A DNA stretch of 63,691 nt, counting the filler, from Stramenopiles sp. TOSAG23-6 (taxonomy: Eukaryota): NCBI GenBank assembly GCA_900128565.1. It is 12 parts of 12 records of this genome, joined end to end, with 100 filler letters (N's around TTAATTAATTAA, not from the genome) between each part and the next. Parts side by side here need not be neighbours in the genome. Positions count along the whole stretch, not along the records: positions 7,419 to 14,725 come from LT636579.1; 11 more parts are not named here. One strand, written 5' to 3'. This document shows, one piece after another, positions 1,879-63,431 of this stretch. The stretch's first letter is position 1, and every line of letters starts with the position of its first letter. Position numbers and translations under genes: made by a program. The notes beneath the pieces were generated by a model, which did no database searches, was not told where the DNA came from, and was given only the letters and a program-made list of their open reading frames with translations.

Positions 1879-4077
1879 ATGATTCGAACGTTCATATCCA
1901 AGACAGTTCCCCGAGCATGGACACAGCACTCCAAGATGGTTAAGAAAATCATTGTTGGAAATGCATTACCATGTATTGGCACAAGTTCATTAAATTGTAC
2001 ACATTTTCAGTGTCGATGTTCGAGCAATGGTAAAGGGAGAAACAACGGAAGGAACGGCGGCCCCAGCGTAACTAATGGAGGGAATAATCTTGGACGTAGA
2101 ACTAAACGCATTATTGATACAAAAAAGAGCCAAGGTGGCGGAGCCGGTGGTGGTGGAGGTCCACCTGGAGATGATATGCTTTGTCCTAACTGTGAAAACC
2201 GACTACAAATCGCTGTAATGCCGACGTTGAAGCAACAAGAAGATGATCCAACTGTCGGACCTGTGTATACTTGTTTGAAGTGTGGTAGTTACTGGCGTTT
2301 AGCTGGACCTCGGACTCCAGTAGGTTCAAGCAATGTTCAGATTGGAACAAACTTTCGAACGAATACTACACAAGAAGATTATGAAAAACAGATGAAAGAT
2401 GAGAAGTATGCGGAATATCAGGTTTTAGAAGGTTCAAAATTGAATCCAAAAGAGCTTTTTGAAGGTCTAGATGAGCACGTCGTAGCTCAAGAAAAGGTGA
2501 AAAAAGTATTAAGTGTAAGTATGCATAATCATTTTAAACGATTGAATAATCACATCGAAAAGGAAAACAAAAAAGCAAGTGAAACTTTCCTAAGCAGAGA
2601 AATTTCGTCAGGTTCACCGTCTGATCTCAATATGGACAATATTGGGATGCCGACAAATAGCCTTAATATTCCATTTCCTCTCGGTCCTAGAGGTTCACAT
2701 ATGGGTTTGTCTACGGTATGGGATACATCAGAACCAAAATCTCATACAAATCCAGCCATGAATTCGAAAAGTGAATCCCCAGAGGAAGGCGCTTCTAAAA
2801 GTGCTTCTGCATTAACACTCGTCGATGAGCCTGAAGATGATTTAAAAAAAGATGCAATGAAAGGAGACTTCAAAAAAGGTTCAACACCTGGAGAAACTCG
2901 CAAAGATAAACTAAATGCTTTAAAGCAGTTAAATGGTCACTCGTATGATGAGGATGATGTCGTATTAGATAAGACAAATGTGATGCTGGTTGGTCCTACA
3001 GGCTCAGGGAAAACATTATTGGCCAAGACTCTGGCTAGTCTTGTTGATGTACCACTTGCTATAGTTGATGCCACATCACTAACTCAATCAGGATACGTTG
3101 GTGAAGATGTAGAGTCAATTTTGTTTCGTTTATATAAGGCATCTGGCTACGATTTAGAAGCAACACAAAGAGGTGTAGTATACATTGATGAAGTTGATAA
3201 GCTCGCTCGAAAAGCAGAGAGTGTAAATATTACTCGAGATGTTAGTGGCGAAGGTGTACAACAAGCTTTATTGAAGATGCTCGAAGGATCTGTGGTTCAT
3301 GTACCTGAAAAGGGAGGTAGAAAAAACCCAAGAGGAGAGTTTATATCGATCGATACTACACATATACTATTTATATGTGGTGGTGCATTTGCTGGACTTG
3401 AAGAAGTAGTTGCCAGACGAGTAGCAAAATCATCAATTGGATTTGGTGCCCGAGTGCGAGGTAAAGAAAAAGCTGAAACTAAATTGATGGAAGTTTCTGA
3501 GCCGGCAGATTTAATGAGGTTTGGAATGATTCCTGAATTTGTTTCGCGTTTTCCTGTCATTGTGAGTACAAGTGAATTGACTGAAGATCAACTTATTGAT
3601 GTACTTACCAAACCAAAGAGTGCGTTAATTAAACAGTATAGGAAATTATATTCCATGAGTAATACTGAATTCCATACTACTGATGCAGCGATGAGAGAGA
3701 TTGCGAAAAGTGCTCGTGTGCGTGTACGTTTTCATTTCAATTTCTAATTTTTTTTTTTTTTTTTCGTATGAAATTTTGTACCTAAATAAAAAAAATTGAA
3801 ATATTTTTTCACGATACATGGTACTGGTGCGAGAGGTCTTCGTGCAATTATGGAACGTATGCTAACTGAATCAATGTATTATTGCCCAGATGATGATGAA
3901 GATATTCGTGGTGTTTTAGTCACAGAAGATGTCGTTAAGGGTTATATTCCACCAATAATGTTACGGGGAGATGAGACTGTTGAAAGTTATTTTGAAAAAG
4001 TATCTGAAGGTTCTCTTGGTCCAAAAAATACACTAGAAAGTGTTGATGTTCCTGACGTTCTTGGAGCTGCTGCATAA
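1879..4077 (+). CDS. CLPX: Mitochondrial ClpX AAA+ chaperone; exons 1879-3723, 3820-4077
   Basis: Presequence-like N-terminus, CxxC/CxxC zinc motif, [22 protein letters not shown] and [14 protein letters not shown]. Splicing restores [16 protein letters not shown]. Confidence 0.95.
3724..3819 (+). other. Non-canonical GT-AT intron (family member)
   Basis: GTACGTTTT...GTACCTAAA...GATACAT. It has an in-frame stop and no AG anywhere inside, and removal restores the TGARGLR sensor-2 region. Confidence 0.9.
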
Positions 4078-8587: not shown

Positions 8588-11500
8588 CTATTCCCCGTCA
8601 TCATACGGATTCACATCACGGGAATGATATCCACGTTGCTCTGCCAAACGCTTCATGTATTGTTGACTATACTCCTCTTCGGACATCCCAGACATTTCCG
8701 CAGCCTGTTGTATTTTTTCTCTGTAACCTGCAATTGTATCATCATCATAGCCTGCAAGTTTAAGGTACTCATATAAATCCTTCGCCTTATCAAGAGCAGA
8801 CATACGCTCTTCATACCGATTTGACTGTCCTCCAGGTGATGCCTTGCCATTCATTGAGTACTCAGAGTATCGCTCTTTATAGCGTTCAAAGTATGCCTTT
8901 TCATACTCTTTTGTTGTCATACCTGCTGCAACCGCCCCATCCTTGAGCTGATTACGGTACGTTTCGATAGTAGCTTCATCATATCCTGCTTGTTGTAAAT
9001 ATTCGTATATATCCTTACTATTCTTTAATGCTTTACCAAGTTTCTCATACGCTGCATTGTGGTCTGCCCTAGACGTCATACCACCACGTCGTTCTTCACC
9101 CTTACCAACACCATCTTTTCCTGTCCCAGCAGCAGGAGGTAAAACTTTGTATACACTCCATCTTCGATTATTCGTTTCACCTTCAGGAGTAGCTTCATCA
9201 CAAAAGTCATCAATACAACCACATCTACGTTTTGTTTCATCAAGACAAGGTCGCTCACATGATCCTCCTTCACGATCTAGTTTTGTTAGCAATTTATTAA
9301 ATGCAAACGAGTGACCATCACTATACGCACGAGCAATAGCAAAATATTTCTTATCGTTAGTAACTGCGTGGTGCTTAGCAAGCTTAAATCGTGCGCCTGT
9401 AGAGCCACCAGCATAGATTTTGTCTTCCGAAAATGAATTTTCAGATGTAAAGCATCCAATATACTTGGATCGATGACTTGTGAATCCACTGTTATTTGCC
9501 TTGGCAGCTGCCTTTTTTGATGCTTTACGGAAATCTCTGCGATTTTTCCTGACAATGCGAGAGGTTTGCACGCGATTCCATTCGTGTCCTTTTTTTACAC
9601 GATATATGCGGACCATCCAATTTTGTGATGTAAATGCTTCTTCAATATGTTCAAGTTGAATATGTTTATCACCAACTTCCATATTTCGCACAAGATCAAA
9701 TCCATTTGGTTTTGAATAATCCGTGATTAGTTCAGAAAAACGGTAATATGAAGTTTTGTATATTAAAGATCGAAGAAATTGTTTTGTCGCAGTATGATCA
9801 ATAGCAAATCTACCTTTGGAGTTGTAATATTTTTCCTCCGTGACATGTATTTTGGAAAAATATTTCAAAAAAAATCTAAAACAATTTGTTAGGTACAAAA
9901 TTTCGTATGAAAAAAAAAATCGATTTTTTTGTAAAAAAAAAAATAAAACATACATCATCATAAACACCTTGTGCGATACGAACCATCCAAAGGAACTTAT
10001 TAATGTCATCGGATTGATAACCTGTTTTACCACCAAATACAACTAGTACATAATCAACATCTAGACTATCAAGAATAGGCCAGGCTTTCTCCTCAGAAGA
10101 AGCAAGAGCTCGGGCAACAGTCGCAATATGAGTATTATTCCAGGTATTATGCATTATGAAAAATATTTCAAAATTTAAAATCGTTAGGTACAAAATTTTT
10201 ATAAAAAAAAAAAAAAAATCGAAATTGAAATGAAAACGTACATTATCTACTAATGTAGTACGATTTGACATTGAGGCCATTTGGTATCCATAATCCCACC
10301 CTGTATTATGAATAAATATGTTTTATGTATGAAATTTGTTAGTTTTTTGTTTTTTGTACAAAACTTGGAGTAAGTATAAAACACAAATTGAGATGAATGA
10401 TGAAAAAAATATTTCAAATTTTTTCAAGAACTTATTAGGTACAAATTTTCGTACGAAAACAAAAAATCTTAAAAAAAATGAAAACGTACATGCAAGAACT
10501 TTGGCATCGGGATGAGTATTATGTCGTAACCAATAGTATGCCTCACGGTAATCATCCATAATGACACGTGTTCCATCTGCACGACGACTTGCTAAAACAA
10601 TAGAAGGACTAGAATATGCTTCTGAAGCAACATAAGTAACATGCATTGAATACATGCAAAGCATCCCTGTCATACCCATGATCACCATAACTGCCAAACT
10701 AAATGGAATTTCTGATTTAGGTGTCTTTACAGAATTTCTCAAATTTTTATCATCTGACAATAAATGAACTTTGTATTTTATATGAGCCATAAATCGTCGT
10801 AGTATAGCACTAACCGAAATTGAAGCTAGGATACATGCAATAGGTGCAAGGGTAAGCATAAGTCTCACCATGACACCCGCGAAATACCACGAAATTGTTC
10901 CATATAAAATAATAAAAATTTTCGAATCTGTAGGGTTTTCAAATAAAAAATACACACCTGCAGGTGAAAAAGGGACTAAAATATGTAAATCAAAAAAGAA
11001 CGAGGTCCAAGTAGTGGGCTGATGTTCACTAACGGATGCAATAATGGGTATATATTTTTTAGCATAGGTAGGATCTAATAAAGACAAGGCCCTGCCGGTA
11101 AACTGAACTTTTCCAGATAACAAAGCGATGCTAATAATCGTCACTGTAAGTGTCATAACACCAAAGAATGCAAGACGCATGAGAAATTTTGCTTGTTTAG
11201 CAGTCACCTTATTTCTAAACCAGATCATAAGAGCAAATGCATTAATCATGATAAATACACCATGTGAAGATGCACATTCTGCTTGCAATAGTACATTAAA
11301 TCCAACAAATGGAACTTGCATCGCCATTAAATTACCCAATATATAATACGTTGTGTATGCAACATACAAGCGTCGTGAATAACGCCCTGCAACAGTTAGG
11401 ATAAGTACATATAATGGTATAATATTGATAATGAAAATATATCCACCCCATGCAGAAACCATATAAAAATATGCCACGGCCGTCACCGCAGCGTAGGCCA

Positions 11501-12182
11501 TTGAACCAGTATTGACAGATTTTACCCATAGATAAAACACAAATATTAGTGCAAATATGGCAACCCCTTCATTATCATACGACCCTCCAACAGATCGTGA
11601 AATGTAGGATGGAACGACACCAACAAAGGCAGCTGCTAAAAGTGCTGTAGAAGATCGACGGACAACTTCCTTTGTCAGTAGAAATGTGACAACACAAGTA
11701 AGACTGGCAAAAAATGGGGCCAAAAATACGCACTGATTACGAACACTAATTGATATATTTATCGTGTTGAGAAGCCAGTAGAAAAATGACGCAGTTGCCA
11801 TAAGACCTGGATATACAGTACCTCCAACAATGCGTCCGAGAGGATACCAAGAACGGTCATCGAACCAATTTAGAAAATTTACAGGACCTTCGTTAGCAAG
11901 GTATTTCGTAGTGCGATAATTAAAGTAAGGATCATATTCATGGATAACACTCTCCCATCTCACCACTGCAAATAACCTTATCATGAAAGACATGAGGCAA
12001 ATAAGTAACAAGATAGTGTATTGGAAAACAGGCACAGCCGCATTGGAAACATAATCTTGTTCTATCGTCTCTATCAATGGCGGAAATGCTGTCGGGTCAG
12101 ATTTCAAGTAAGTTACTGTATCCAAAATAATCCCCTTAGCACCTGAGGTTTTCTCCCCAGATTTTGTTGAATCTTCCTTCAT
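8588..12182 (-). CDS. STT3: Oligosaccharyltransferase catalytic subunit with a long C-terminal extension; exons 12182-10490, 10300-10242, 10148-9954, 9844-8588
   Basis: [17 protein letters not shown], the spliced WWDYGYQ and [14 protein letters not shown] motifs, and [12 protein letters not shown]. Confidence 0.97.
10149..10241 (-). other. GT-AT intron (family member)
   Basis: AAT|GTACG...TGCAT|AAT restores the invariant DN-NTWNN; no AG inside the intron. Confidence 0.92.
10301..10489 (-). other. GT-AG compound family intron
   Basis: T|GTACG...AATACAG|GG restores WWDYG. The AG sits at the same position as AT in sister introns. Confidence 0.92.
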
Positions 12183-18748: not shown

Positions 18749-20268
18749 ATGCTTGTTAGTTGTTCACGGTGTGGGGAACCTGTAGAAAATTGTGTCCGAA
18801 GTACATGCTTTTGCCCAGAATGTAGTAATGTAGTAAAAAAACGTTGGTGTGGTGGCTGTGGCGTGGAATGCAAAATCAACTCTGGTATAGACGATGGTAA
18901 TCATGTAGTCTTTCTTGGGCGTTTATGGCACACAGAGTGTTTACGTGTATTTCATCCGGATAGACTTGACAATAATGCTTTTGCTAGCACGTCTAGTCAC
19001 AAACATCATACGCCATTTGTGCGCTCAAGTTCATACATACGTGCATTTATGGATCGCACGGCTTCGGAAGATAGAAATCAAACTCAGGCTGTTAAGGACT
19101 CTACAAATAATGAGTACAGCACAAATACAAATAGTGAATACAGCACAAATAGAATAAAAAGTATGTCAACTCCATTAAAACCAACGACTAGAATAAAATC
19201 GCGTCATTATAAGAAAACAGATTTTCAACAACCAAATAAGACTATCCTCAAAAAGACTGGGAGAAGTAAAAGTAGTCGAAGTATTAGTGGAACATCTCGA
19301 CGATTGCAACAATTTCACTCTCCAGCACTACAAGATTTAGTAAGCCGAATAAAAATAGCTTGTGTGAAGCATCAAAACAAAATTAGAGATTGTATAATTG
19401 GTTCAGAATTGGTATCGTATCTTGTTCGGAGCGGACAATCTAAAAATCGTATCCATGCTCTCGCAGTTGGTCAGCATTTGTTTGACCTCGGTGTACGTGT
19501 TCATCATTCATTTCAAATCTATTTATTTTTCGTACGAAATTTCATACCTAACTATTTTTTACGAAAAAAAATATATATGTTTTCATAAAACATGTCTTGC
19601 GAAGAGTCTCAACTAGCAATAGTGTATATAAAAGTAAAATATCTGTGAAACATTCCGTTCGAGAAGTTGGGAAAAGTATCTTAAAATCTCTTAGCCCTTT
19701 GGTAGGGGCTTCAATCAGTAAGAAGAAAAAAGTAAAAAATAAGAGTTCAAATTTAGATAATTATCGTATGGGCTCAGAAAGTTCCGAATCAGAAATATCT
19801 GTAAATGATTCAACCAAACAATTATTAGATAAAAGAGATAAAAGAATGTTTGAAGATTCATCTGGTGCAGTGTACCAATTTTGGCCTTTACGATCTCTTT
19901 CAGATACTAAAACATCAAATACTAGTAGTTACAGTCAACGTGGCCAAACACTAAAAGATTTTGTACGTTTTCATTATGAATTTCAAATTTATTTTTTGTA
20001 GAGAAAATTTCATACCTAACGAATTTTAAATTTGATATATTTTTGGACAATACTTGGGACTCCGATACGAAAAACAAGAACTGTCCCTGTATCCACTACT
20101 GCTTCAAATAATGCAACAGGGTTGATTACATCATGGCCTTGGTCAACAGATAGTATGCTAAGAAATGTCGATACAGAATCGAAAAGTTCAAAACCTGGAA
20201 ATGTGTTGGGTAGTGATACTAAAAACTCGAAAGCTGTAGCTAGTGCGCGTGAAGTGGGTACTTCTTGA
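18749..20268 (+). CDS. Zinc-finger (LIM-like) plus DEP-domain protein; introns 19493-19593 (GT-AT) and 19963-20055 (GT-TT)
   Basis: CxxC clusters and WHTEC; DEP-like CIIGSELVSYLV...A..VGQHLFDLG|VLRRV completed by splicing. Confidence 0.7.
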
Positions 20269-22114: not shown

Positions 22115-22347
22115 NNNNNNNNNNNNNNNNNNNNNNNNNNNNNNNNNNNNNNNNNNNNTTAATTAATTAANNNNNNNNNNNNNNNNNNNNNNNNNNNNNN
22201 NNNNNNNNNNNNNNTTTTTTTTTGTACGAAATTTTGTACCTAATAAAAAACAATTTACGAAAAAAATTCAATAATTTTTTTTTCTGTAATTTTTTTTTCG
22301 TACGTAATTTTGTACCTAATGATTTTTTTTTTACTAAAGAAACATAT

Positions 22348-24919
22348 TTTTGAAACTATATCTTTGTCGTGATGGACTAGTTCGAATTTGTACAGATGAA
22401 TACAGACATCCTGGTAACTGTGAAGCTAATTTGGGTAATATATTTATGCATTTATCAAATTATTCTTTAAACAAAACATCTACTGCATACGTTCATTCAA
22501 ATGATTCGACGGGAGGGAATGTACGTTTTTTTTTTTCAATTTTTCATCTAAAATTTTTTTTCGTACGAAATATTGTACCTAACAATTTTTTTTTAGATTT
22601 TTTTAAAATTATTTTTCCAAAATACATGGGAATAAAAGAGCATTGTCTGCTGTATTAGAAAGTTTTGCACAGGAAGGAATTACTGATGTGTTTCAATTAT
22701 GGCATCGCCTTTGTTCACTTGTTAGTCTCACTACCCAAGCAATGAGACCAGCCTTAATTGATGCAATAAGAAAATCTACAGATGTTGTGTATGTATGTTT
22801 TTTTTTTTTTTTTTTACCGAAAAAAAAAATCGAATTTTTTTTTTTATAAAAATTTTGTACCTAAACAAAAATTATTTTTTTTGAAATATTTTTCCAAAAT
22901 ACATAATTCGTACATCAACTCTCCAGAACGATCTCGAGCAAATATTTCTTTTGCTCCTTTCGGAACTCCTTATGGAAAAACAACCAATGACAAAGTGTTG
23001 AATGAAACAATAAAACGACATTTGAAAAATTTGCAATCTGGTGGCAGAAGCTTCCATATATTTGGCTTCGATGTAATGCTTGATGAACATTTTGATCCTT
23101 GGCTTCTTGAGGTCAATGCTAATCCTAGCTTTAATATTTCAGCCCCACATTTCAAACAAAGATTAGAAGAGGTCGAGTTGAATAAACCATTGACAAAATT
23201 AGAAGAGGTCGAGTTAAATAAACCATTGACAAAATTAGAAATGTATGAAAACAAAAAGAATTTCCCCATTGAAGCAGTCAAGAACAAAATGTATGAGGAC
23301 GATGGCACTAAATCCGATGAAAGCATTATTGGAACTATCAGTGACGAAGATATACAATCCAATAGTTCAGTACAATTCAAAGATTTGTCGTCTTGTACAA
23401 ANAGAAAAACAAAAAGAAGTACTATTAGCGAAATTGATAAAATGGTTAAAACAAAGGCTTTATTGGGTGCATTTGAAATAGCCGAATTAGAACTATCAAA
23501 AACAATTCCAGGAAATAAAAAAGACAAAAAGGGTGGAATAATAGAGGGTACAAATAAAAGTATTTATTATATCCCAGTTGGAACCAGGCATGTACGTTTC
23601 ACATGATGAATTTATTAATTTTTTTTTTTTGGTTTTCGTACGAAATTTCGTACCTAACGATTTTTTTTCATGATTTCGTTTTTTTTCACCACAAATAGTG
23701 AACAACATCCTGGACTTCTTGCAATCCATAGACTTCAAAAACTTTGCTCAGAATTATTATCAACAAGGAGTGGATTTACTTCATTCAAATTTAGGAACTT
23801 TGTTAAACATTGCGACCTGTACGTTTTCGACATTGAGCTTTACATTTGTTTTTTACAGAAAATAATTTGTATTCAACATATTTCAAATGTTACATTTTTT
23901 TTCACAATAAATTTTGACCGACAAATTAACAATAGTTGATGTTGATCATTTGTATGCTTCTATGCGGTATGCATTTACAAATAGAAATAGGTGTGATGTA
24001 GATCGTGTTTCCAATGATGTCCTTTCAGGGATGTGTCCGTTTTCCTACCATTTCAATTTTTTATGTATTTTTTTTCATACCAAAATTTGTACCTAACAAA
24101 AAAATTACAAAAAAAAAATATTTTTTTGCAGTACATGGGATACAAATGCTTCGCTTACCGAGGTCGAAGCATATTCCAGTCTATCTCTACATCCTATCCA
24201 ACTAACTGAATTAGTGCAATCCGTGGCTGCAAAAGCAAGACCTCATTTATCGCCTCTAGCGGCATTGACATGTATGTTGTTTTTTTTAATTTCGAATATT
24301 TTTTTTTCGTACGAAATTTTGTACCTAACAAATTTAAGTTTTTTTTTATGAAATATTTTTCCGAAATACATTATTATTAGATTGTCATGAAAAATCCAAA
24401 CATGAAACCTATTTTCATACTACTCCTACTACCTCGAATAAAAAAATAAATCAAAAAACAAATAATAAATTTGCAAAATCACATAGTCAGTCAAAACAAA
24501 AACGCAAATTAATTCAAAAGTCTACTTCGAGTTGTTCAGAGTCAAAAATGGTAATACTTAAACAACCTGGTCGTAAAAAATGTGTTCAAAACTTTCAGAC
24601 AGAATTACCTATTCAAAACTCTCAGACAGAATTACAAAACTCTCAGACAGAATTACATATTCAAAACTCTCAGACAGAATTACATATTCAAAATTCGCAA
24701 CATTCCGAAAGCATGAAAGTACCTACTATTGATTTGAGTAGTTCTAGTAGCTCTTTGGCAGTGTCTATTACTGATGACGACTCTGATCGAGACATAAGTT
24801 TTATTGGTGTTGCTACAGGGTTTACAGATTTAGAATCAGAAGTGTTGAAAACAATGAAAGATTTGGAAAAAGGACTTGTAAAAATTGAGAAAATCGAAAA
24901 TAATTTTTTAACTAAATAA
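22348..24919 (+). CDS. Tubulin-tyrosine-ligase-like (polyglutamylase) gene, 5'-truncated; introns 22521-22627, 22793-22904, 23592-23696, 23819-23912, 24035-24136, 24272-24371
   Basis: DGLVRICT..Y, MHLSNYSLNK and FHIFGFDVMLD...PWLLEVNANPSF. The frame stays open across all six AT-ended introns; the last two also have in-frame AG alternatives. Confidence 0.85.
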
Positions 24920-25950: not shown

Positions 25951-28296
25951 ATGCGATTCATTTTATACCCGGTGAAGAGAATCTGTAAGAATAGTCCTCG
26001 TACGTATAGCAGTACTGTTTCTAGACTATTTCGACGAGATGCTGCTCCTGCAAGTTTGTCCAATAACGTTGTAGAAGAGACAATGCAACCTTCGTTGATT
26101 CCGCGCACGTTAGGCAAAGACGACGGACTACCTATATCTATCAGAGACTCTGCATGGTCTTTAAATGTTGGAATGCCTGATAAACCAAGTACAACAACTG
26201 AAATATTGCAACGTATTGAATGGGATTATCGTGGAAATCTTGTCCCTGGTCAGAAGCGTTTTGACACACTTGTTGAGTCTGTGGAGGATGGTACAGATAT
26301 TACCCCTTTAGTTAAAGGTTTTAACTACTTTGTAGACTCTTTCCGAATAGTTCTTTCAAAGAAAGGGAATCTTAAAGGTGGGTCAAAACTTCCATTGAAT
26401 GAAAATCTAGTTGCTAAATTTGTAGATAAATGTGCTACGCATAACATGAGTCACGAAGCAGTGGATGCTCTAGTTCGTTCTTCAAAACTTCGGGGGCTTT
26501 CGTCTCAGATGTCTCAATTTATCCATCCAAATACAATGATTACATTGATTGATGGTCTTGGAACGTCGGATGATGAAACGGCTGAAAAAGTGACTTTGCT
26601 TTATAGATTGATGGACGTACAGCCTAGTAAAGAAAGGACCGAAATGTTATTCCAGCTTGCACGGTACGTTTTTTTTCGTACGAAATTTTGTACCTAAGAA
26701 TTTTCGATTTTTTTTTTCCAAGTATTGTGTCTCTTTTTTATATTTTTCTACGTTTCCGACATTACTTTATTTATTTAATGATAGAGACACACAAATGATG
26801 CTCTGAAATATTCAGAATCGCTTCGCTGAATGCCTTGTGACGTGGTAACAGCGAAACTTGGCTTGAGGACAAATTTTAATTTGATGTGTGTTTGATTTTA
26901 ATTTTTTTTCAATTTATTTTCAATTTTTTTTCATTTTATTTTTCAATTTATTTTTCATTTTATTTTTTTTTTTTTCAATGTTTTTCACTATGCATTGGTT
27001 TAATCCGTCATCAAGATTTTACTTTCTTTTGACTTTCATGCCAATGCAATAATAGAGGTCTTTCTAAGAGCGGATTACTAATTATTTTCCAGCTAGAATT
27101 GTTACAATTTCATTCGATTTTGTAGTATTTTTTTAACAACTCTTCAGTCTGAGCACTTGTATAGGTTTTTCTATACTGAGTGTATTACCACGAGCGAATC
27201 TGCATATACTCATTACAACTCCTATCATACTTTTTGTATTATTGTACCTGAAGATTAATATTGTAGTAGTATAATTTGTTGTTTCAGAAATTTCGTTCTT
27301 ACAAAACTTTCATTTTGTTTTTTTTACAATGTACAATGTACCAAGATATATTTATTTGACTTGAAATTCTATACTTATTTTAGTACAACTGTTTTATAAT
27401 ATCATATATATCGTAGGTATCATGGTAATCTATCAAGAACAAAATCGCTTCTTGGTATCTCAAGTGCTATAATGAAAAGTGAAGCAAATAATCCCAAGAA
27501 AGTTTCTGAATTGGCTGAAATTTTGTTTACTGTAGCAAAAACATTATTACCAAAATCAGTTGATAAAAAAGACAACACAAACAAAGAAGACAAAGAAAAT
27601 GACCAGCAACAAAATGATACTACCTCAAATGATTTGACATACCCAAAATTTTTGAAAAGTATTNAACGATTAAAAAGAATTCCAAAACCAGAAAGTTTAA
27701 AGTTATCAAAACAAATTCAAACATTGGCGAAAGAAAGTCCTGAAAATGAGTTATTTGAAGCTCAAATAAAAATTGCTGAAAAGGCTGAAGCTGAACGTGT
27801 TGCTCAATTCGAGGCAGACGCTGAGAAAAATAATGAAGAAACACAAGAAGAAGAAGTAGATGAGGAAGTAGCTGCCCGTGATGCTAAGCAAAAAACTTTA
27901 GTTGCAAAACGAATCGAACTTGCAAAAATTACAGATAAATATTTCCAAGATTTTTCTGATTCAATGAAAAAAGAAGATGAAGAATTAAAACTTCGTGATG
28001 ATGATCCTCGTTGGATTAAATTAAAAGAAATGTATGGTATTGAAAATCATAGTTTTGTAGTAGATCAAGATGGCCCTAACGATGATGAGTATAATGCTTA
28101 TTTGGAACCAGAAGAAAAATGGCATCGTGGGGATTCAATGTCCCAAACGGAAGGTCCTGCAAAAATCACTCCTTCTCGTGAATTGTGTAAAGGATTTGAC
28201 TATGCAGAGCAAGTTATGAATGGAGAGCATATTCTTGAGGCTATTCAGAAGATGAATGTCCTTCGTGATCAACCAAAGACTGGTAATACTGCTTAA
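25951..28296 (+). CDS. Hypothetical protein, possibly mitochondrial; exons 25951-26663, 27417-28296
   Basis: Arg/Ser-rich presequence-like start; a canonical CG|GT...TAG|G intron joins the two ORFs in frame. Confidence 0.65.
26775..26870 (+). ncRNA. Intronic box C/D snoRNA candidate
   Basis: ATGATG C-like box (26795). The guide TCAGAATCGCT upstream of CTGA (26826-26829) is complementary to the LSU rRNA segment AGCGRTTCTGA as I recall it. Ends uncertain. Confidence 0.6.
26988..27109 (+). ncRNA. Intronic box H/ACA snoRNA candidate
   Basis: Hairpin TGCATTGG/CCAATGCA with pocket TTAATC + TTCATG, H box ATAATA (27049), second hairpin TTCTA/TAGAA, and ACA at 27104. Confidence 0.72.
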
Positions 28297-32873: not shown

Positions 32874-33511
32874 TTGTACAGATATTTTTGAGGTGTAATT
32901 TACCACTAAATGAAGCGTTGAAGTGTATTTTATTATATCTATCAAACCACTTGGGTAAAAACTGGTGGTGGTAGCAAATGTTGCGCGCCACGCGCATTCG
33001 AATTATATGTTTAATTTTTTTCACACATTTCGTGTCATTTGAAAAATACACGTAAAGCTTTACATTGAAAATATCATACTATTACTAGTTGTACCAATCA
33101 TTACAATCTTTACAAATACAACACTATTAAAAACATAAAATATGAATAAACTACAATCAATAGTTTTATACAAAAGTAGAGATTTGTACGAAATTTTTTT
33201 TTTTTCATACGAAATTGTATACCTAACAAAAAATATCAAAAACATTTTGAAATTTTTTTTTCTGAAAATGTATAAAAACTTTAAAAACCAAACAAAATCC
33301 TCAATTTGACATTGAAAATTGTAAAAAAAGAATTATCACAAGGAAATTATCAATTCATCAATTGATCAAGTTGAAAACAGTGATATTATATATTATTCTT
33401 ATATATTTATTAAACTATAAAATTTCATTTTATGTTAAAAAAAATATCTCAAGAATTAGGGTTATTTATTAAAAACTATAAAATTTCATTTTATTTTTTT
33501 TAAAAAATATC

Positions 33512-44201: not shown

Positions 44202-44411
44202 GTATGTTTTATTTTTTTTTTTTAACAAAAAAATCGAATTTATTTTTCGTACGAANNNNNNNNNNNNNNNNNNNNNNNNNNNNNNNNNNNNNNNNNNNNT
44301 TAATTAATTAANNNNNNNNNNNNNNNNNNNNNNNNNNNNNNNNNNNNNNNNNNNNATTTTGTACCTAACAAATTTTAGTTTTTTTTTTTGAAATATTTTT
44401 CCAAAATACAC

Positions 44412-45931: not shown

Positions 45932-47648
45932 TCAACGCTTAGTGGTACCGCGATTTGATAATTCCACAAATGCGTTGTTTTTGGTTTTCTCCAATTTTTC
46001 TGCATTTCTAGCAGTATTAAAAGAAAATAATCCAATTTTTGCACTTTCATCACGCTCCAAAGTAGCATATGTCCCTGATGTTTTTTTCTGCTCATCATGT
46101 GTATTCGAATCATTACCAACCACTGATATTCTTGCGTTGTATGGAATATTATCCAATTCTTGTTGTGTGCATGGAAAATCAAGCTCTACATGAGTACCCT
46201 CATTGGATTCAAGAGATAAATAAGTAAACTGCCAAGGAGTTGAACTATTGAGATTTTTGTTTTCTTCATGACGAACAGCATGTACAGTTACTTTGGCTCG
46301 TTTTCCACCTAAACAATCTTTAGCTTCTTTAGGGTTAGGGTTAGGGCCCAGACATTCAAATCTAAAATTAGCAAACGTGTTTTCAATTTTTCCGCCTAAA
46401 AATCGACCACCACTAATTTCTCCTCCTAAAGCATTTTGCGCAGTCTTATTGCGTTGAATAGTTCTAAGTGCCAAATCCCTTATGTCGATGGACTTACGTA
46501 CATGTATTGTCAAAAATATTTCATATATTGAAAATTCGTTAGATATATTACAAAATGTTCCATGAAAAAAAAAATTAAATTCATTATGAAAATATATACA
46601 TCTCAAAAAAAATTCTTAGGTACAAATTTTCGTACGGAAAAAAAAAGGTAAAAAAAATATGATAAAAACGTACTCTATATCGTCGATGACCAAAAATACC
46701 AAGACTAAAAAGACCCAAAGTAATTGAAATTATCAATAAATTATCACTTTGGGGTAAATATTCATAAACTGTACTAAAATAATTCTTTTTCTTTGACGAA
46801 AATTCGTCAAGTCCGGAATTTTGTATACAAATCGACTGCAAAGAGATTTTCAAACCTTTACTAGTTTCAGGTACCAGTTGAACTATTCTAGGGTTAGGGT
46901 TACTAGACTGAAATGTATCTGAGGTTTGCGATAATTGAGTATTTTCCCCAATAGTTTTATCGCTTTTTTTGCTTGAATTTTTTAATGCAATTGGTGTCAC
47001 GTTTAATTTCTGTATCAGACAATGAGTAGGGTGTACAACTAACGTAGCCTTTTTTTTGTACGTACCAAATTCCGTACCTGATGTCAACAATTCACGTTTT
47101 TCAGACATATTGTTTTGAGTTTTTTGAGTTTTTTGAGTTTTTTGAGTTTCTAGACAATTTTCATGGACACTACTATCAATATTTGATTTATCTGTAGCAT
47201 TTATTTCCGAGTCTTTACTACCTTCATTTTTACTTTCATCTAAAAGAAGCGAAAGTAACTCTACTTTAGCTGTACCACGATTTCCTGTTATGAAAAACGT
47301 TGCATCAAGAAACGCATCCTCCAATCCAACTTTACAAATATTTTGTGTCCCTGAAACGCGACTCGATATACACATATCTGAACCAACTAATTCTTTGACT
47401 TCATCAGAAGACGATAACACATGAAATGCGGGGGAAAAGGCTTGATTCTTTTGTAAAGACTTGTCCAACAAGTACTTCGATGTCTGATATGTCAAAAAGC
47501 TCATGGTCGTGACACCTCCGATTAGGCCAAGCAGTCCGTAGTTGACACGTCGTGGTACGCTTGACTCTGTTGTCGAGACGTTTGTAATCTGGCGTATGTA
47601 GTATGGTATATGTATCATAGAACTACGACTTCTATACAATACATGCAT
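45932..47648 (-). CDS. Probable mitochondrial inner-membrane protein with two TM + Tim21/Coa1-like modules; intron 46502-46673
   Basis: Each TM is followed by helix-(L/V)G...F.I.G..G.AKV-like sequence. Domain identity is by eye only. Confidence 0.55.
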
Positions 47649-48008: not shown

Positions 48009-51000
48009 ATGTCTGATCCAGAGGGATATCAAATACCTCCAGCTGTCTCTGTCAGCAATGACGTTAGTCAATCAACTCCTCGTACATCTCTATCTGTCGT
48101 CACAAAAACACATACAAAAAAAGAATCAGGTATACCAAATGATTTATATGAAGGTGGGACGCAAATCGAGTCTGTAATATCTCCTATATCAAATGCTTCA
48201 TCGGAATGCGCTTCTTTACGTCAACAAGTAGTTCAATTATCTAAATGTGCGGAAGAAAACTCTATAGAGAATTTCTTACCTGATGAAACTCCGTTTGCTG
48301 AGTCTCTCCCACCTCGGCCAATAGCGCGCGAAAATCAGCATCGTATAGAATTATTGAAGCGAGCTCGCCGAATGGAACACGATAATGAACGACGCGAGCG
48401 TGAAAAGATAAAAGCAAATAACAAGCTACGTCAAAAAACTTTGGAGAAAATAAACGAAAGTCAAGAAAAAAAATTAGGGTTAGAGTTTCCACAAAGTCTT
48501 CGAGATAAAGAGCAATTTGATGAATTAATGAATTTAAAAACGGATGAAATTTTATCTCGATCAAATAAGCAAACAAAATTTAGATTAGATGAAAATGAAA
48601 TTTTAGTTGGAAAAAATAGTTATATATCTACTACTACGGGTAAAACATCCGAAAAATGTATAAACCCTAACCCTAGTAACCCGAGTGAAGGTCAAATCAC
48701 AAACAATGACACTCAGAACATTCAAAATTCGTTACGTTCGAAAACCATAGGAGGATTAGCAACAGATGTTCATTCAAATGTTCATTCAAATGTTCATTCA
48801 AATGTTCATTCAAAATCAAATAATAGACCTAACCTTGGGAAGGATTACTCCTTAGATAACAATACACAGTATTCAATGCGTGAACGAAAAAACACGAAAT
48901 CTATACAAAACAAAATCGAACATAGCACAACAAAAAGTAACGATAATTGTACTGTCCAGAAAACTTCAAAAACTCCAAAAGTGAATAATGTAGAAATCAT
49001 TCGGGCACAAAAAGCAGCATTGGAGCTAGCTAAGTATAGTATGGCGCAAAATCAATTAAAAATTAGAAAATTGGCGATGGAAAGAAAACAAAAAAGTCGT
49101 ATGTTTTTTTTTCAATTTCGAATTTATTTTTCATACAAAATTTTGTACCTAACCATATTTTTTTTTTTCGAAAATTCTTTACCTAACAATTTTTCTTTTT
49201 TGATTTTTTTCAAAAATATATGTGATCTGGCAATAAGACTTAGGGAACAAACATTACAGCCAAGACTACCAAAAAGAAAACGAAAATCTAAAGAAATTAA
49301 TAAAAATATAAAATCAACATTATCAAAAAGTAGTTCAAAAAATAGAAATTTCGCAGCTTCTTTTCCAAAATCTAAAAATACAAAAACATCAAAATCAAAG
49401 CCAACAGTGTTAAAAATAAAAAATAGTACAAAACATCATGAAATAAATCATCCAAAAAATACAAAACATCAAAACAATCAAAATCATAACCCTAATCCAA
49501 AAAATACAAAACATCAAGACAATCTTATTTTGAAACAATCAAATTCTGCGACTGAAAAAAAAGTGAAAAAGAAATCGACCAAATCGACCAAACCAAAAAA
49601 GAAGATTGCGTATAAAGAATTAAAAAGGAGACGACAAAATGTCAATTCTTTAGGTAAGAAATTTCCTACGAATTTAATTTCGAATGATAAAAATTTGGAT
49701 GATTCTCATACGAGTAAAAAAATAGAGCAAGCCATAAATAGAACATGTACGTTTGCACCATGAATTTCAATTTTTTTTTTTTTTGATACGGAATTTTGTA
49801 CCTAAATGTTTTTTTTTTTTGAGTTTTTGAGTTTTTTATTCAATACGTTTTCACTATAAAATGTCAAATTTTTTTTTTAGAAAATTTTGAACCCCAAACA
49901 CATTTTATTTTTACTAAAAAAGAAAAAGAAAAAAAATATATTTTTTCACAATACATGGTTGGATGGTTTAGAAACTTCTATAATGAACAAAATATTACCT
50001 TTACAAATTCAAAAAGAGAATAACAAAAATAACAAAAATAATACATCTAAAAAAGAAAAAAATACTAATTTTCACACTCGTAAAAATACAATTGAAAAAA
50101 GTTTAGAAATATCATCTGGAAAGCCAAAGAATACAAAATCAGAGTCAGAAAAAATAGAAAAACGTAAAAAATTAGTTGCATATATGGCGCGAAAAAAGAA
50201 AGAAATGAAATTAAAAATTAAAGCAGAAAAACAAAAGTTTGAAAATGAGAAAAAGTCAAAAGAAGAGAGACTTCTTGGAGTACGGGAAAATGCTTTAAAA
50301 GCATATCAAACTATGAAAGTGAAAAAGATGTATGTTTTATTTTTTTTTTCAATTTTGAATTATTTTTTTTCAAAAAAAATTTGTACCTAACAAAATTTTT
50401 TAGTTTTTTTTTTGAAATATTTTTCCAAAATACATGCCACTGCTAAAGAAAAGAGAAACGAATCGCAAATCCCGCAAAGCATTGAGTATTACTAAAAATG
50501 GATCGAAAATGAGATACAATTCGCATTCAAGTAATTTTGGTACAACAAAAAATGTTCAAAAACAAAAAATGTTCAAAAATGAAAAAATAAAAAGTACGAT
50601 AAATTTTCAAATGGACAAGAATTTAAATTCGACCGATGCATCGAATATAGTAAAGCATACTAAAACTTCTAGTACATCAATACATCAAAATCAGTCGTCA
50701 AGTAGTATTCAAATGCTCAAAATCAAAGAAAAAAAGAGTAATAAAAAAAAGAATAATATAGTCAAAAAAAGTTCCACTTGTATTAAAACATCTAAAATAC
50801 CTAAAAAAACTCATAAAAATAAATCTACTTTTGAAAATGGAACCCAACAAATTCGAAATTTATCAGGTGTTGTGAAAAAAACTCAAATATCTCAAGATTC
50901 AAGTTCAAATTTGCAAATGAAAACTAAACTAACTTTGTTAAATACTAAGAATACTAGGAATAATAAAAAAGTAAATTCTACAGTAGAGGAAAGTAGCAGT

Positions 51001-51022: not shown

Positions 51023-51120
51023 GTATGTTTTTTTTTTTTTTTTAATCGATTTTTTTTTCGTACGAAATTTTGTACCTAACAAATTTAATTTTTTTTTTGA
51101 AATATTTTTCCAAAATACAT

Positions 51121-51547
51121 GATTTGGAAGGAATCAACAAAGCTATTGAAATCGCTAGGTTAGATCCACGACCATCCATTATCAAAGTAAGAACTGTTAT
51201 TGGAAAAGGGGCTGGATCAAAAGAAGGCTCACATAAGGTACATGTAGGTTTTTTTTCATCAATTTTTTTTTTTCAAATTTTTTTTTTCAAATTTTTTTTT
51301 TCAATTTTTTTTTTTCAATTTTTTTTTTTCAAATTTTTTTTTTCAATTTTTTTTTCAAATTTTTTTTTCAATTTTTTTCATACTAAATCTTATACCTAAC
51401 AATAAAGATCAAATCTCTACATTATTTTAATAATACATGGTGCTCCATTAGGTGAAGATATTCTTGCACAAGCAAAAACAAATTTTGGTTTTGATCCAAA
51501 TTTAAAATTTAATATACCTCAAGACGTTCAAAATATTTATACTAAAT
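51121..51547 (+). CDS. TKT: Transketolase internal fragment; GT-AT intron 51244-51438
   Basis: AI..A...RPSII.VRTVIGKG...EGSHKVH|GAPLG; splicing restores the conserved HGAPLG. Confidence 0.88.
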
Positions 51548-53125: not shown

Positions 53126-56100
53126 ATGGATGATTATCCAATGGAATCACACGGTAATGAAATAGATTACTACAATGTTTTGAAGCCTGTATTATTAGTT
53201 ATTGGGAATAGGCGTACATTACTTAAAAACATCGTTGGAAATAGCTATGAAATGTTTATCGAAAAAAGTGAAATAGACAGAAAAACTTCTGTTGAAAATC
53301 TACAAATTGTCTCAACAACACAGTTTCTTCATTCTTTATCAAAAATAGGTATCATACTAAATCAGCAACAAAAATCAATAGTAACTCAAGCAATACTACA
53401 ACTACCTGAAAACAACATTGACTTTGCTAAATTTTATGCTGCACTCCTAAAGGAGTCACGGTATCGTCTAAGAGCAGTCTCTAAAAAGGATCGAAAAAGA
53501 TCCCAAGAGCAAATAGATATAGCAACGGAAAATGCCAGTCATTCTACAGATTTAGATACTATATCATCTAATGATACAATATCAATGAATTCAGCTGAAT
53601 TATACCGGAAAGTTTTACAGGAAATATTAACTGCAATGGAGCGACAACACCCTCAATCACGTCGTCAATTGTACAATTCTATCATTGAATGCTCATATTC
53701 AATTTTTATGGGATATGATAGCAACGAAGATTCAAAATTATCTCCAGCAGAATTTCATACTACTTTATCACGCCTTGGGTTGTCTTTAAATCCGGCACAA
53801 ATGAGAGCTATAAACTCTATGATTGATATCGATGGTGATGTAAATTAACCCTAACCCTAAACGTTCACTTCAATTTCAAATTTATTTTGTAAGAAAATTT
53901 CTGACTTTTCAATTTTTTTTTAAATATTTTCCCAAAATATATGGCTATATTCAGTTTCCCGAATTTTACAAAGCATTGAGTGCTGAGGCGACAAAACGTC
54001 TTCGTGATTTTGATATGGGAATTGGTATGAGTGCCGCTTCTCGAAATAGTGATTGTATGTTTTATTTTTTTTCAAATTAGATTTTTTTTTCGTACTAAAT
54101 TTTGTACCTAACGATTTTTTTGTGAAATATTTTTTCACAATACTTCTATTGGTGGTCCAAAAACAAGAAGTTTTTCAACTCGATTACCAGCAAGTGAACA
54201 GGAATCTTCTTTGTTAATTAGTAATTTAATGGAACAAGATCAATCTCTTCAAAAACAGTTAAATGAAATGCGCGACGAGGAATCTACATTTAGAAATAAA
54301 ACAAAACAACTTATTGAAACTGTTTCCCAAATGGAGCAAACTTTAGTAGACTCAAATGATGCTAAAAATAATGCACAAAAAAAATGGACTGAATGTCAAC
54401 AAGAATGTCTGGCTGAAAAGCAAAATGCTCGTGCTGAGTTAGGATTACTTGATTCAAAAGTTCAGGCAGAAATCGATAGTGAAAAAGTACTTCGAGGCAA
54501 AGAGGAAAGTTATCAATCATACTCCAAGTTTTGGAGTCTTGAATCGTTGAATGATGTGTGGGTAAAATATGATATGCACCAAGAAGGATCTATCTCTATT
54601 GCATCATTCTGTAGCTGTATTCAAGATAATTTTCCTGAGTTATTTTCTTTCCCCGCCTTAAATCAATTGTATAAAAAAACTGGTCTCATTCGAACAGCTA
54701 AATCTGGCGAGCCACGAGTTCGTCGTGATGAATTCCCTGATATGCTAAGGGAATTGTACATGCTACATATTATCCAGAATGCTCTTGATGAGGGAAATTT
54801 ATCCGCTCTTTCGTCCATGGATACTTCAAAATTGTCAATAACATATCCTCAGTTTAAAAGACATATGAAAAGTTCAGGAATAAATCTAGATGAGTTAAGC
54901 TTTGAGGCTGAGTTTAATAGTATAGAACCAGAAGTTATTGAGTCAGATATACCACCATTGGCGAATAGATCTGCTCCTTTTGAATCATATTGTAAATATC
55001 GCGCAGTCCTTATGGGGCATACATTATTGGCTTCATTGATGGGTTATAATATTGATGTACTTTTCACTGGAACCCCTATTCAAACGCCAATACCATCTCG
55101 TGCTCCCTCTCGGCGCTCTACGTCACACACTATTGAAGAAAATGAAACAAATATTGATAATATATCAAATGTGGGACGTAAAAGACCAGGATCTAGAGCA
55201 CGACCTGCATTGCGACCTCCAAGTTCACGAGCAAGACCAGGTTCACAACGACTCCAAGTGCTACAGACTACTATAGCTGGTCAGGGTGGTCGTCCTTTGA
55301 CTAAGCGATCTCTTAAACGTGTCCAAGCTAGTAGAACTCGGCGAAACCAATTTCGTGAGGAAATAAAGAGTTGTCTTGAAAGAATTAAACATGCAACAAA
55401 AGAAGAAGAAAATATGGCTGCATATTTGAGACAGTGTCAAGCAGAGCATCATCTGATACGAGAGCAATACGATATATGCCAATCAAATCTAGCAGACGCT
55501 GAAGCTAAAGAGGAAAAGGTGCGTGCTCAAAACATGGTAGTTCGACGTAATATATGTGACAGCAGAGTAATTATTAGATCACAATTAGCTGCGTTGCTGC
55601 ACAAGAAGAAAGATATGTCTGGTGCGCCTGCAGTTGAGGAGGAAGAGGACCTTGGCCCTCCAATGCCACTGTTTGCAGAATTCAAGAAAATGCTTAACCC
55701 CGAAACAAAAGGTACCATACTTGAACAACAAGAAATGACATCCAGAAATAATAAAGATCGAGCCCTACGTTTAGTTGGTAAATGTCCGAACTCTACAGAT
55801 AGTTACTATCATAATTGGTACAGACGACCTATTATTCGATTATTTATGAAAGTTAGTGTGCTAAAGAGTAAAAGAAAGCTCGAAAAAGCATTCAAAACTC
55901 AATTATCGCTGAAGCAATTTCATCGTATTCTCTCCCGAAGAGGTTTGACCGGAAAAGTTATGAGAATTGATAGGAGTGATAATACTTGTAATATTCGTTT
56001 TGATGGTCAAATTGGCTCTGAGGCTAGTGAAACATGGATGCCGATAGAATCCTTGATGCAACGCCAATTACCTGCAACGATGCTAAACGCAGTCGTTGGA

Positions 56101-59091: not shown

Positions 59092-59823
59092 CAAATGATA
59101 ATGACGTCATTGTTTTTGGTGTTTTTGGTGTTTTTGGTGTTTTTAATTGATCATTTACAAATGATAATGATATTCTACCTAACATTTGTTGTGCTATATT
59201 AACAGCTATTTTTGATTCTGGTGAATCATTCAAAATCTTTCTTCCTTTACCTGGCTTTGGTTTACTCAATAAATGTTTCTGCTGCATCCTATATTGTGAT
59301 TTTTTTTTTTTTTTCAAAGTAAAAAAATATCGTTAGGTATAAAATTTTGTACGAAAAAAAAATTATGTAAAAAAAACAATTTTTTTAAAACGTACATGAG
59401 TAATAAAGAACTGGCTATACTTTTTGTTATTTGAAGTTGTTGTGCAAGTTTCGCAACAGTGATAAAAACACTCGGATTTCGTGTTTTCGGATGTGAATGT
59501 AAAATTTCTACAACTGCACGAGAAAACATAAAGTATAAAAAAATATTTCAAAATGTTTTTTTTGATTTTTTTTGTTAGGTACAAAATTTCGTACGAAAAA
59601 AAAAATTAAATTTCACAATAAAAACGTACAATATTGTTGTATGATCACACTTGGGAGTAGCTTTACTATTACTATTACTGTGTAGCTGAATAGTAGTAGG
59701 GTTAGGGTTTCTAACAGACTTTTTCGTTTTTAATGATTTTAATTTCAGTTTTTTTGAAACTTTTTTTTTTGGTGATAAAACAGATCGAGCATTAGGGTTA
59801 GGTAAAATACGTTTTATATTTGG
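59092..59823 (-). CDS. Fragment of a hypothetical gene; introns 59528-59629 (GT-AT) and 59289-59395 (GT-AG)
   Basis: Three ORF pieces join in frame at family positions. Confidence 0.55.
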
Positions 59824-62673: not shown

Positions 62674-63062
62674 CAAAATGTTGTACAACATTTTGACAGT
62701 TCAAGGAATATTTTTATGGAAACTGCTCATCCTAAAACAGGCGTTAATTTCAATTCTCCTGACGGTAGGTTACACCTACCAGGTCATTCAATTGAAATTG
62801 CTTGGTTTTTAATGCAAATGTGTGACACACTGCGAGTTTCGAATAGTAATTCGAATAGTAATTCTGATATTAATTATACAGATTTGGAAGAAGTAGCTTT
62901 ATTAGCACTTGAAGGCTCACTAGAGATTGGTTGGGATAAAAAATATGGTGGACTCATCTATATGTTAGATGTTGAGAATAAGCCAATGGTTGATGCTACA
63001 GTTACAAAAGATGGAAAATTATGGTGGCCTCTCACAGAATCGATCATGTATTTGACTCTCTC
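62674..63062 (+). CDS. N-acylglucosamine 2-epimerase (AGE/RENBP family) internal exon
   Basis: GR...PGHSIE.AWFL, GWD..YGGL.Y..D and KLWWP.TE; 3' boundary uncertain. Confidence 0.85.
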
Positions 63063-63431
63063 ATACATCTTTTTTTTTTTTAATAGAAAATTTTGTACCT
63101 AACAAAAAATTTTCAAAAAAAAAAAATATTTCTTCACAATACAAAAGGAAATTAAGAAAAGAATTGATGCATGTACTACATCTGTAATGGTTGATTCTCA
63201 GTATATGGATTGGAAGAGTGCTTTGAAAGTCCCTCAGAGGGGAAGTTAATGTTTTTCATTTTTTTTTAATAAAATTCAAAAATTTATTTTTTTGTAAAAT
63301 TCAAAAATTTATTTTTTTGTAAATTTTTTTCATTTTTTTTTCAATTCAAATTCAAAAATTCATACATTTATTTTTTTTTGTATTACAAATTTTGTATTGT
63401 ATGTAGAATTTTTAAGCAAAATCTTACAATT

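Follow-up and report, generated by a model that had tools for sequence, protein, structure and literature searches.

Results

Introns of the STT3 gene

The window analysed here is a joined stretch of 63,691 nucleotides (63.7 kb) from Stramenopiles sp. TOSAG23-6, and the system in question is a family of short repeated introns, an introner family, which interrupts several of its genes. One of these genes is STT3, which encodes the catalytic subunit of oligosaccharyltransferase and was delimited by open reading frames (ORFs), translation and matches to STT3 chains in PDB (Table 1). Its product had 6676 homologues in the protein search, and the nearest named proteins, from Nannochloropsis, Phytophthora, Saprolegnia and Pythium (all stramenopile), showed 59-64% identity. 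The gene has four exons and three introns, called A, B and C here, all of which are copies of one ~100-nt family and carry its core TTTGTACCTAA. Introns A and B had been described in an earlier note on this DNA (the original prediction), and their coordinates and letters were found as described there, read on the minus strand. Intron A is composed of a full family copy (10489..10405) and a degenerate second copy which provides its AG end; this end, TTCATAATACAG, matches the 3' model of the family weakly (profile search, E 0.18). Double copies were also found in the introns at 46673..46502 and 49747..49956. Intron C has the direct repeat ATGT at both sides and can be removed in five silent registers.

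The mRNA junctions at introns A and B can be deduced from protein. Removal of intron A joins GCA T|GG TGG, which reads A-W-W, and removal of intron B joins GAT AAT|AAT ACC, where the loss of 93 nt restores LVDN|NTWNN. In the STT3 chains of three solved structures, matched by phmmer, ...LVDN and NTWNNTHIA... are adjacent at residues 752/753, 623/624 and 535/536, so that exactly 31 codons are extra at intron B. P0122, a protein of 110 residues found in a close relative, lacks both introns and reads AWWDYG across the site of intron A without interruption, and its alignment with the read-through of the window contains a single 31-residue gap with 69/72 identities. The protein therefore requires the junctions GCA-TGG-TGG and GAT-AAT-AAT, just as had been foreseen; the solved chains back the second and P0122 backs both. 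The absence of introns A and B from P0122 suggests gain or loss, and nothing more.

We also examined how far each junction can slide without changing the protein. For intron A, the silent shifts are 0 and +1, and a shift of -1 gives GCA GGG and turns WWDYG into GWDYG. For intron B, the silent shifts are -2, -1 and 0 (AT..GC, TG..CA and GT..AT, respectively), and a shift of +1 gives D-N-D-T-W. The two damaging shifts, leftward in intron A and rightward in intron B, are those on which the original prediction was built, and the shift test confirmed both. Its conclusion that only a GT-start register fits both introns holds in that shift 0 is the only one silent in both, but it overlooked the +1 shift of intron A (TA..GG), which is silent because the first G of the intron is the same as the first G of the next exon. 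The common shift points to a GT-first register, with G as the probable first nucleotide of the intron on this sequence argument, provided that the same bond is cut in the identical 5' sequence of the two introns, ATGTACGTTTTCAT. No in-frame AG was found from -30 to +45 of the end of intron B. The sole AG near this end lies at +40, out of frame, and its use would delete 13 residues.

The STT3 product continues beyond its conserved end in a C-terminal extension of ~320 residues (8591-9560, minus strand), which includes Cys-rich as well as repeated 'YEYL..AGYD' segments. No Pfam family was found above threshold in this extension (RecX_HTH1, 22.8 bits against a cutoff of 26).

A repeated intron family with variable 3' ends

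The core TTTGTACCTAA occurs 35 times in the window at no more than one mismatch, against 2.1 matches expected; in 100 shuffles the count never exceeded 6. With an nhmmer profile made from 16 copies, 68 matches were obtained at E<=1, which correspond to about 45 copies. Each copy is ~90-125 nt long and follows the layout GTAYGT...TTTGTACCTAAC...CAMAATACAT. The consensus of 22 aligned copies opens with GTAYGTTTT and closes with GAAATATTTTTYCAMAATACAT; TTTTTTCGTACGAAATTTTGTACCTAAC lies between them, separated from the former by a T/A-rich stretch and from the latter by another stretch, both of them variable. The alignment is conserved at GT, at the branch core and in the 3' block, and it varies in the interior. 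The copies lie in unrelated genes, including STT3, ClpX, ABC-F, PLAA-like, TTL-like and transketolase genes and others. The 34 copies that we curated are all in sense orientation and all have splice signals. Their 5' end is GT in every case (GTACGT in 17, GTATGT in 10 and other forms in 7). A TACCTAAC-like branch motif stands 33-48 nt from the family 3' end; it is a sequence motif, and its A is the presumed branch nucleotide.

The 3' ends are of another kind. The terminal dinucleotide is AT in 26 of the curated copies, AG, TT and AA in two each, and GT and AC in one each, so 32/34 end without AG, among them introns B and C, which end in AT. The proposed GT...AN register is borne out by the GT start and by an A at -2 in 31/34, but 'AN' is not absolute, as the TT ends (2) and the GT end (1) show. 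The last base (T 29, G 2, A 2, C 1 in the alignment) is interchangeable within the family, as had been claimed; in the AG-ended member at 59289, likewise cited for this purpose, the AG of CACAATATAG occupies the same alignment columns as the corresponding bases of its sister copies, CACAATACAT. An in-frame AG is missing from -30 to +45 in 16/34 curated copies, and an unused AG stands between the branch motif and the end in 9/33, including intron C (TAG at -31) and the transketolase intron.

When each copy was removed from GT through the end homologous to ...ACAT, the longest flanking ORFs were joined in frame in 30/34 cases (P=5e-11 at a chance rate of 1/3, with alignment-based boundaries). 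Two of the four misses can be accommodated: 59395..59289 fits, in our reading, once it is chained to the exon set by the upstream intron, and 23819..23911 is ambiguous, with left frames of 48 and 53 codons of which one fits. Shift 0 is silent in all 34 copies, -1 in 25, +1 in 21 and -2 in 17; since the boundaries were drawn at shift 0, its silence throughout is a matter of consistency and no independent proof.

Exact junctions were also obtained in other genes. In ClpX, the upstream exon ends at residue 304 of E. coli ClpX and the second residue of the downstream exon falls on 306, so the first falls on 305 and the exons are contiguous at 304|305. The transketolase exons cover residues 216-256 | 257-285 of 3l84_A and 223-263 | 264-299 of the yeast enzyme 1gpu_A, and their junction reads ...SHKVH|GAPLG.... 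A T-rich tandem array of TTTTTTTTTTCAA-like units (51250-51370, plus strand) stretches the transketolase intron to 195 nt. A divergent family intron splits DIDGD|GYIQFPEF, which by its pattern we take to be an EF-hand loop, and contains two telomere-like CCCTAA units in its 5' part (53847-53860, plus strand).

Transcript evidence

Parts of the stretch were contained in 14 seawater or plankton metatranscriptome runs, and the contigs of four of these (X1-X4) were aligned to it at a likeness of at least 90%. In the polyA run X4, a contig of 349 nt, with a depth of 5.75 and one other letter, joins 9842|9952 and skips 109 nt, which is the length of intron C, with a 4-nt ambiguity and with sides of 73 and 276 nt. 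This contig contradicts a 118-nt skip of intron C through the AG nine bases downstream. A second X4 joint, 10299|10489, skips 189 nt and corresponds to intron A, with GT..AG at a cut of +1. A 151-nt contig of the same run stops at 10149 and has 79 letters elsewhere. This number equals 22 + 59 - 2, which would fit an mRNA with both A and B removed by splicing; the contig's support for intron B is by arithmetic, one joint being dropped at a repeat. The RNA check that had been proposed across STT3 is answered weakly for intron A (skip of 189 nt, one side of 22 nt) and, for intron B, by arithmetic on one contig. None of the contigs of X1-X3 bridges intron A, B or C, and the parts that they leave uncovered are uninformative.

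Two other classes of joints were rejected. The first, which 'go back' from about 9917-9920 to 9845-9888, might have been traces of lariats, but they include 12-40 unrelated letters and match other copies of the family whose T/A runs differ. The second, of 188-1501 nt in X1 and X2 and with sides of 20-24 nt, are artefacts produced by the repeat.

The introner core at 9859-10102 attracted hundreds of contigs in the two non-polyA runs (X1/X2), with a summed word depth of ~8800 against 1-5 on the exons; in the two polyA runs the value was 0 and 14. This pile-up might represent thousands of copies present as pre-mRNA, lariats or DNA, and as contig depth is no measure for comparing parts of a gene, it was not used as evidence.

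Existing gene models and searches

The top match of the STT3 locus, and the only near-identical protein in the database, is a gene model (P0002) labelled 'GSMAST32.ASY1.ANO1.928.1 assembled CDS'. It matches the locus residue for residue over long stretches, yet it is mis-spliced. It runs into intron B, then jumps to LDVDYV and loses 28 residues including the catalytic NTWNNTHIA segment. At intron C it joins DD|EKYY, via an AG 9 nt past the end of the intron (118 nt), and it also excises pieces of real exons; the model forces GT-AG. The protein searches returned no spliced transcript of the source species, only P0002 and the relative P0122. No match was obtained in the window with Rfam at gathering thresholds, in metagenome contigs with an exact 30-mer of the 59-nt exon, or in metagenome, viral and genome contigs with a 23-mer of the introner core; these collections supplied neither further copies nor empty sites nor transcripts.

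Other copies and assembly features

The density of family copies is highest in a TTL-family (tubulin-tyrosine-ligase-like) gene, where six introns lie within ~2.5 kb (22338-24916, plus strand). Partial copies at 33150-33280 and 26642-26725 (both plus strand) are not within clear coding frames but in intergenic or untranslated regions, so some family copies are no introns. At 42398-44200 (plus strand), Pfam identifies a pre-mRNA splicing factor with HAT repeats (Syf1/Clf1/CRNKL1-like). Its own gene is broken by a family copy that runs from 44202 to an AC end at 44410. Of the 11 100-N gaps, each with a TTAATTAATTAA linker, seven adjoin or cut a family copy, and the repeat apparently breaks the assembly. 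At 51023-51120 (plus strand), a K/N/S-rich ORF stands upstream and the middle of transketolase downstream, with the N-terminal half of the enzyme not in sight; this site, the one clear misfit of frame, may result from a chimeric join made at the repeat during assembly.

Table 1 Coordinates of the STT3 locus and of selected members of the introner family (positions along the window).
Feature	Position	Strand	Description
STT3 gene	8588..12182	-	four exons and three family introns
STT3 first-listed exon	ends at 10490	-	570 codons; ends ...GCA T
Intron A	10301..10489	-	189 nt; GTACGT...AATACAG; weak RNA joint; P0122 reads AWWDYG uninterrupted
Exon between introns A and B	10242..10300	-	59 nt; encodes (W) + 19 residues
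Intron B	10149..10241	-	93 nt; GTACGT...AATGCAT; in frame, no stop codon
Exon between introns B and C	9954..10148	-	195 nt; encoded peptide closes with RIAQGVYDD
Intron C	9845..9953	-	109 nt; GTATGT...AAATACAT; polyA RNA contig
STT3 last exon	downstream of intron C to stop at 8588	-	
Branch-site-like core	10435-10445 (A); 10184..10194 (B); 9889-9899 (C)	-	TTTGTACCTAA(C)
ClpX family intron	3724..3819	+	GTACGT...GATACAT
Transketolase family-derived intron	51244..51438	+	GTAGGT...AATACAT; 6-nt direct repeat TACATG
Divergent family intron	53840..53942	+	GTAAAT...AAATATAT; splits putative EF-hand loop
AG-ended family member	59289..59395	-	GTACGT...CACAATATAG; from alignment
TT-ended family member	19963..20055	+	ends CAATACTT; upstream exon also ends TT
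Second TT-ended family member	54055-54145		follows a TT-ending exon
100-N gaps at family copies	7319, 22115, 36878, 44256, 51631, 58992, 62519		

Discussion

The window contains a repeated intron family with boundaries that preserve the reading frame. Its junctions are fixed exactly in STT3, ClpX and transketolase, and at one non-AG site it is crossed by an RNA contig. We consider it probable that the introner copies are excised exactly, from the first G through the two bases that follow the conserved 3' block, that this does not depend on an AG, and that the last two bases are derived from the insertion target. In the mechanism that we propose, the copies would be a mobile introner of an AT-rich stramenopile nuclear genome which becomes an intron wherever it lands. 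Each copy would supply a 5' splice site of yeast type (GTAYGT), the branch-site-like TTTGTACCTAAC directly behind a T-run, and the conserved 3' terminal block ATATTTTTYCAMAATAC, with two more bases, usually AT, behind it. Excision from the pre-mRNA, from the first G through two bases past the block, would restore the coding sequence exactly. The 3' cut would be AG-independent, with internal AGs bypassed and with T, G, C or A as the last base, and the final two bases would come from the target through a 2-bp duplication, preferentially of AT, so that the element and one copy of the target together form the intron. The likeliest machinery is U2-type splicing with an AG-independent 3' site, in which some factor may read the 3' block in place of the AG, and the element itself presumably arose by transposition.

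Three simple rules for the choice of the 3' site were tried and rejected. First, under a rule of the first AG after the branch, the AG bypassed in 9/33 copies should have been used. Second, under a rule of the first YAT, an earlier YAT is present in nearly all copies, typically at -15. Third, a fixed distance from the branch is contradicted by distances that range over 33-48 nt. Because the branch distance varies and both AG and YAT are skipped, the site is chosen neither by scanning nor by distance. What remains as the best candidate is that the 3' block ...YCAMAATAC is recognised and the cut is made two bases after it.

The origin of the last two bases can be judged from the exons. Both TT-ended introns follow exons that end in TT, a coincidence with P=0.011. 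Upstream exons end in AT in 18/34 cases and downstream exons start with G in 21/34, which gives an AT|G junction consensus. The boundary direct repeats measure 0-6 nt, and the terminal inverted repeat GTAY...RTAC measures only 4 nt. The AG-ended members deviate from sister copies in their last base alone and could have arisen by T-to-G changes toward a canonical site.

Several points weigh against our reading. Outside the TT cases, the last two bases of exon and intron match in 17/34, where ~14 would be expected by chance, and with matches so near to chance, target duplication is likely and unproven. The copies at 51023..51120 and 63048..63144 (the latter degenerate) break the frame as drawn. 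Only a few of the 34 junctions are fixed exactly, and the others are fixed modulo 3 and by homology of the element end. As for the RNA, the non-AG junction is bridged by one contig, in 1/4 runs; this spliced X4 contig could come from library DNA or from an intron-less allele, as only RNA runs were used. The joint at intron A has a 22-nt side at 90% likeness, a class of joint that calls for caution.

Other explanations were weighed as well. It is improbable, in our estimation, that the copies are removed by a non-spliceosomal or structure-guided process of the euglenid nonconventional or Amoebophrya-like kind, with the spliceosome-like motifs being incidental. The non-AG ends and short boundary direct repeats do resemble those systems (PMC7789003, in the part available), and in part of the family exon AT + GTAT is, in our reading, complementary to the terminal ATACAT. 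However, this terminal complementarity spans 3-6 nt only and is broken in the GTAC subfamily, and RNAalifold on 22 copies gave 0 consensus pairs, an energy of 0 and no stem joining the ends. The lack of an end-pairing hairpin favours motif-driven spliceosomal removal over structure-driven removal, and GTAYGT and TACCTAAC are the most conserved blocks, as expected if they are read by U1/U6 and U2.

We give slightly less credence still to a shifted register, in which the introns would start with AT two bases upstream and end in AC or GC, and would be removed by a U12-type or variant spliceosome. A shift of -2 is silent in 17/34 copies and gives AT..AC for intron C and many others, and U12-type introns are generally held to tolerate varied 3' ends. 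In the other 17/34 copies, however, the same shift alters the mRNA, including intron A with its change to GWDYG, and intron B would become AT..GC rather than AT..AC. The weak RNA joint at intron A also stands at 10300/10301..10488/10489 and not in the -2 form. U12-type introns have the 5' consensus RTATCCTT and the branch site TCCTTAAC at 10-15 nt from the 3' end, whereas the family has GTAYGT and a branch-like motif 33-48 nt from the end.

Least credible of all is the absence of RNA removal, with the contig coming from insertion-free strains or from DNA excision and the interrupted genes being disabled copies or assembly artefacts: the presence of introns A and B varies between lineages (P0122 lacks them), RNA-library contigs may include DNA, 7/11 of the 100-N gaps adjoin a family copy and the junction at 51023 looks chimeric, but random insertions or artefacts would ignore frame, whereas long ORFs are kept at 30/34 insertions only by exact removal, the copies lie in the essential single genes STT3, ClpX and transketolase, and all curated copies are sense-oriented with splice signals.

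Spliceosomal removal with an AG-independent 3' site, our preferred reading, can be extended to the whole lineage, although this wider claim is tentative and we would not yet favour it over its negation. In it, the major spliceosome of this lineage would be AG-free, with the ~20-nt block of the introner setting the 3' site and with any dinucleotide, a duplicate of the target, as the last two bases. If this is true and the genome as a whole is like the window, with one copy per ~1.4 kb, almost all introns would be GT..NN introners, and the public gene models of the lineage, in which GT-AG is imposed, would be systematically wrong. The mis-splicing of P0002 already indicates that proteomes predicted for such genomes by GT-AG-only tools are damaged.

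The AG at the intron terminus is among the most constant signals of eukaryotic genes. To our knowledge, its large-scale relaxation is known in a few lineages only, namely Fritillaria, Amoebophrya and euglenids. Introner elements were reportedly described by Huff et al. in 2016 in Micromonas and Aureococcus, and non-canonical introns of the tunicate Fritillaria borealis are said to have been described by Henriet in 2019. Introners are now recorded in many eukaryotes (Gozashti et al. 2022, PMC9860276, in the excerpted text). Like these, the present family is short, highly repeated, non-autonomous and sense-oriented, lies in unrelated genes and carries splice signals. In several introner families, as far as the accessible accounts go, the intron likewise consists of the element plus one target-site duplicate and leaves the mRNA unchanged. 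The same accounts give GY..AG (rarely AC) for published introners, whereas 32/34 copies here are not AG, and the terminal inverted repeats and target-site duplications of the present family are at best 2-6 nt and unproven, unlike those of published introners. Surveys of introners set out from annotated introns and drop any family whose splice sites are unfamiliar unless RNA supports it (PMC12130899, in the portion available), so that such filters would miss this family.

Closer parallels for the 3' end are found outside the introner surveys. In Fritillaria, the U2-type spliceosome handles introns that end in A plus a variable base (AU, AC), most introns of the genome are affected, and the change is tied to duplicated U2AF subunits (NAR 2026, PMC13326754, in the sections at hand); the pattern is quoted as 'AG-A(N)' in part of PMC7789003. 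The 5' end is also non-GT there, whereas the present family has a strong GTAYGT, a yeast-like branch motif and a protist host. Amoebophrya, also a marine protist, likewise has repeated introns with non-canonical ends, and direct repeats of 3-5 nt overlap their boundaries and blur the register, but its introners have inverted repeats of 8-20 nt that form hairpins and no consistent terminal dinucleotides (excerpts of PMC7789003), in contrast to the fixed GT start and the absence of predicted pairing here. The intermediate introns of euglenids share a canonical-looking 5' end and a non-canonical 3' end with the family, but their type is defined by a stable structure joining the ends (PMC4770533, in its accessible part), and none is predicted here. 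U12-type introns share the flexible 3' dinucleotide and differ in the 5' and branch consensus, as generally given, and in branch distance. In full-text literature searches, with supplements outside their scope, we found no match for the combination of one young family, canonical 5' and branch signals, a free 3' dinucleotide, no hairpin and a stramenopile host; word searches within three papers on marine stramenopile genomes (PMC5778133, PMC8163842 and PMC12614181) turned up no discussion of introns or splice sites either.

In conclusion, compared with these systems, the window points to another, independent large-scale relaxation of the AG, in a marine stramenopile. Its clean layout, in which one young family combines a canonical 5' end and branch with a free 3' dinucleotide, makes the choice of site in an AG-less second splicing step testable, as well as the way in which a transposon becomes a harmless intron wherever it lands.

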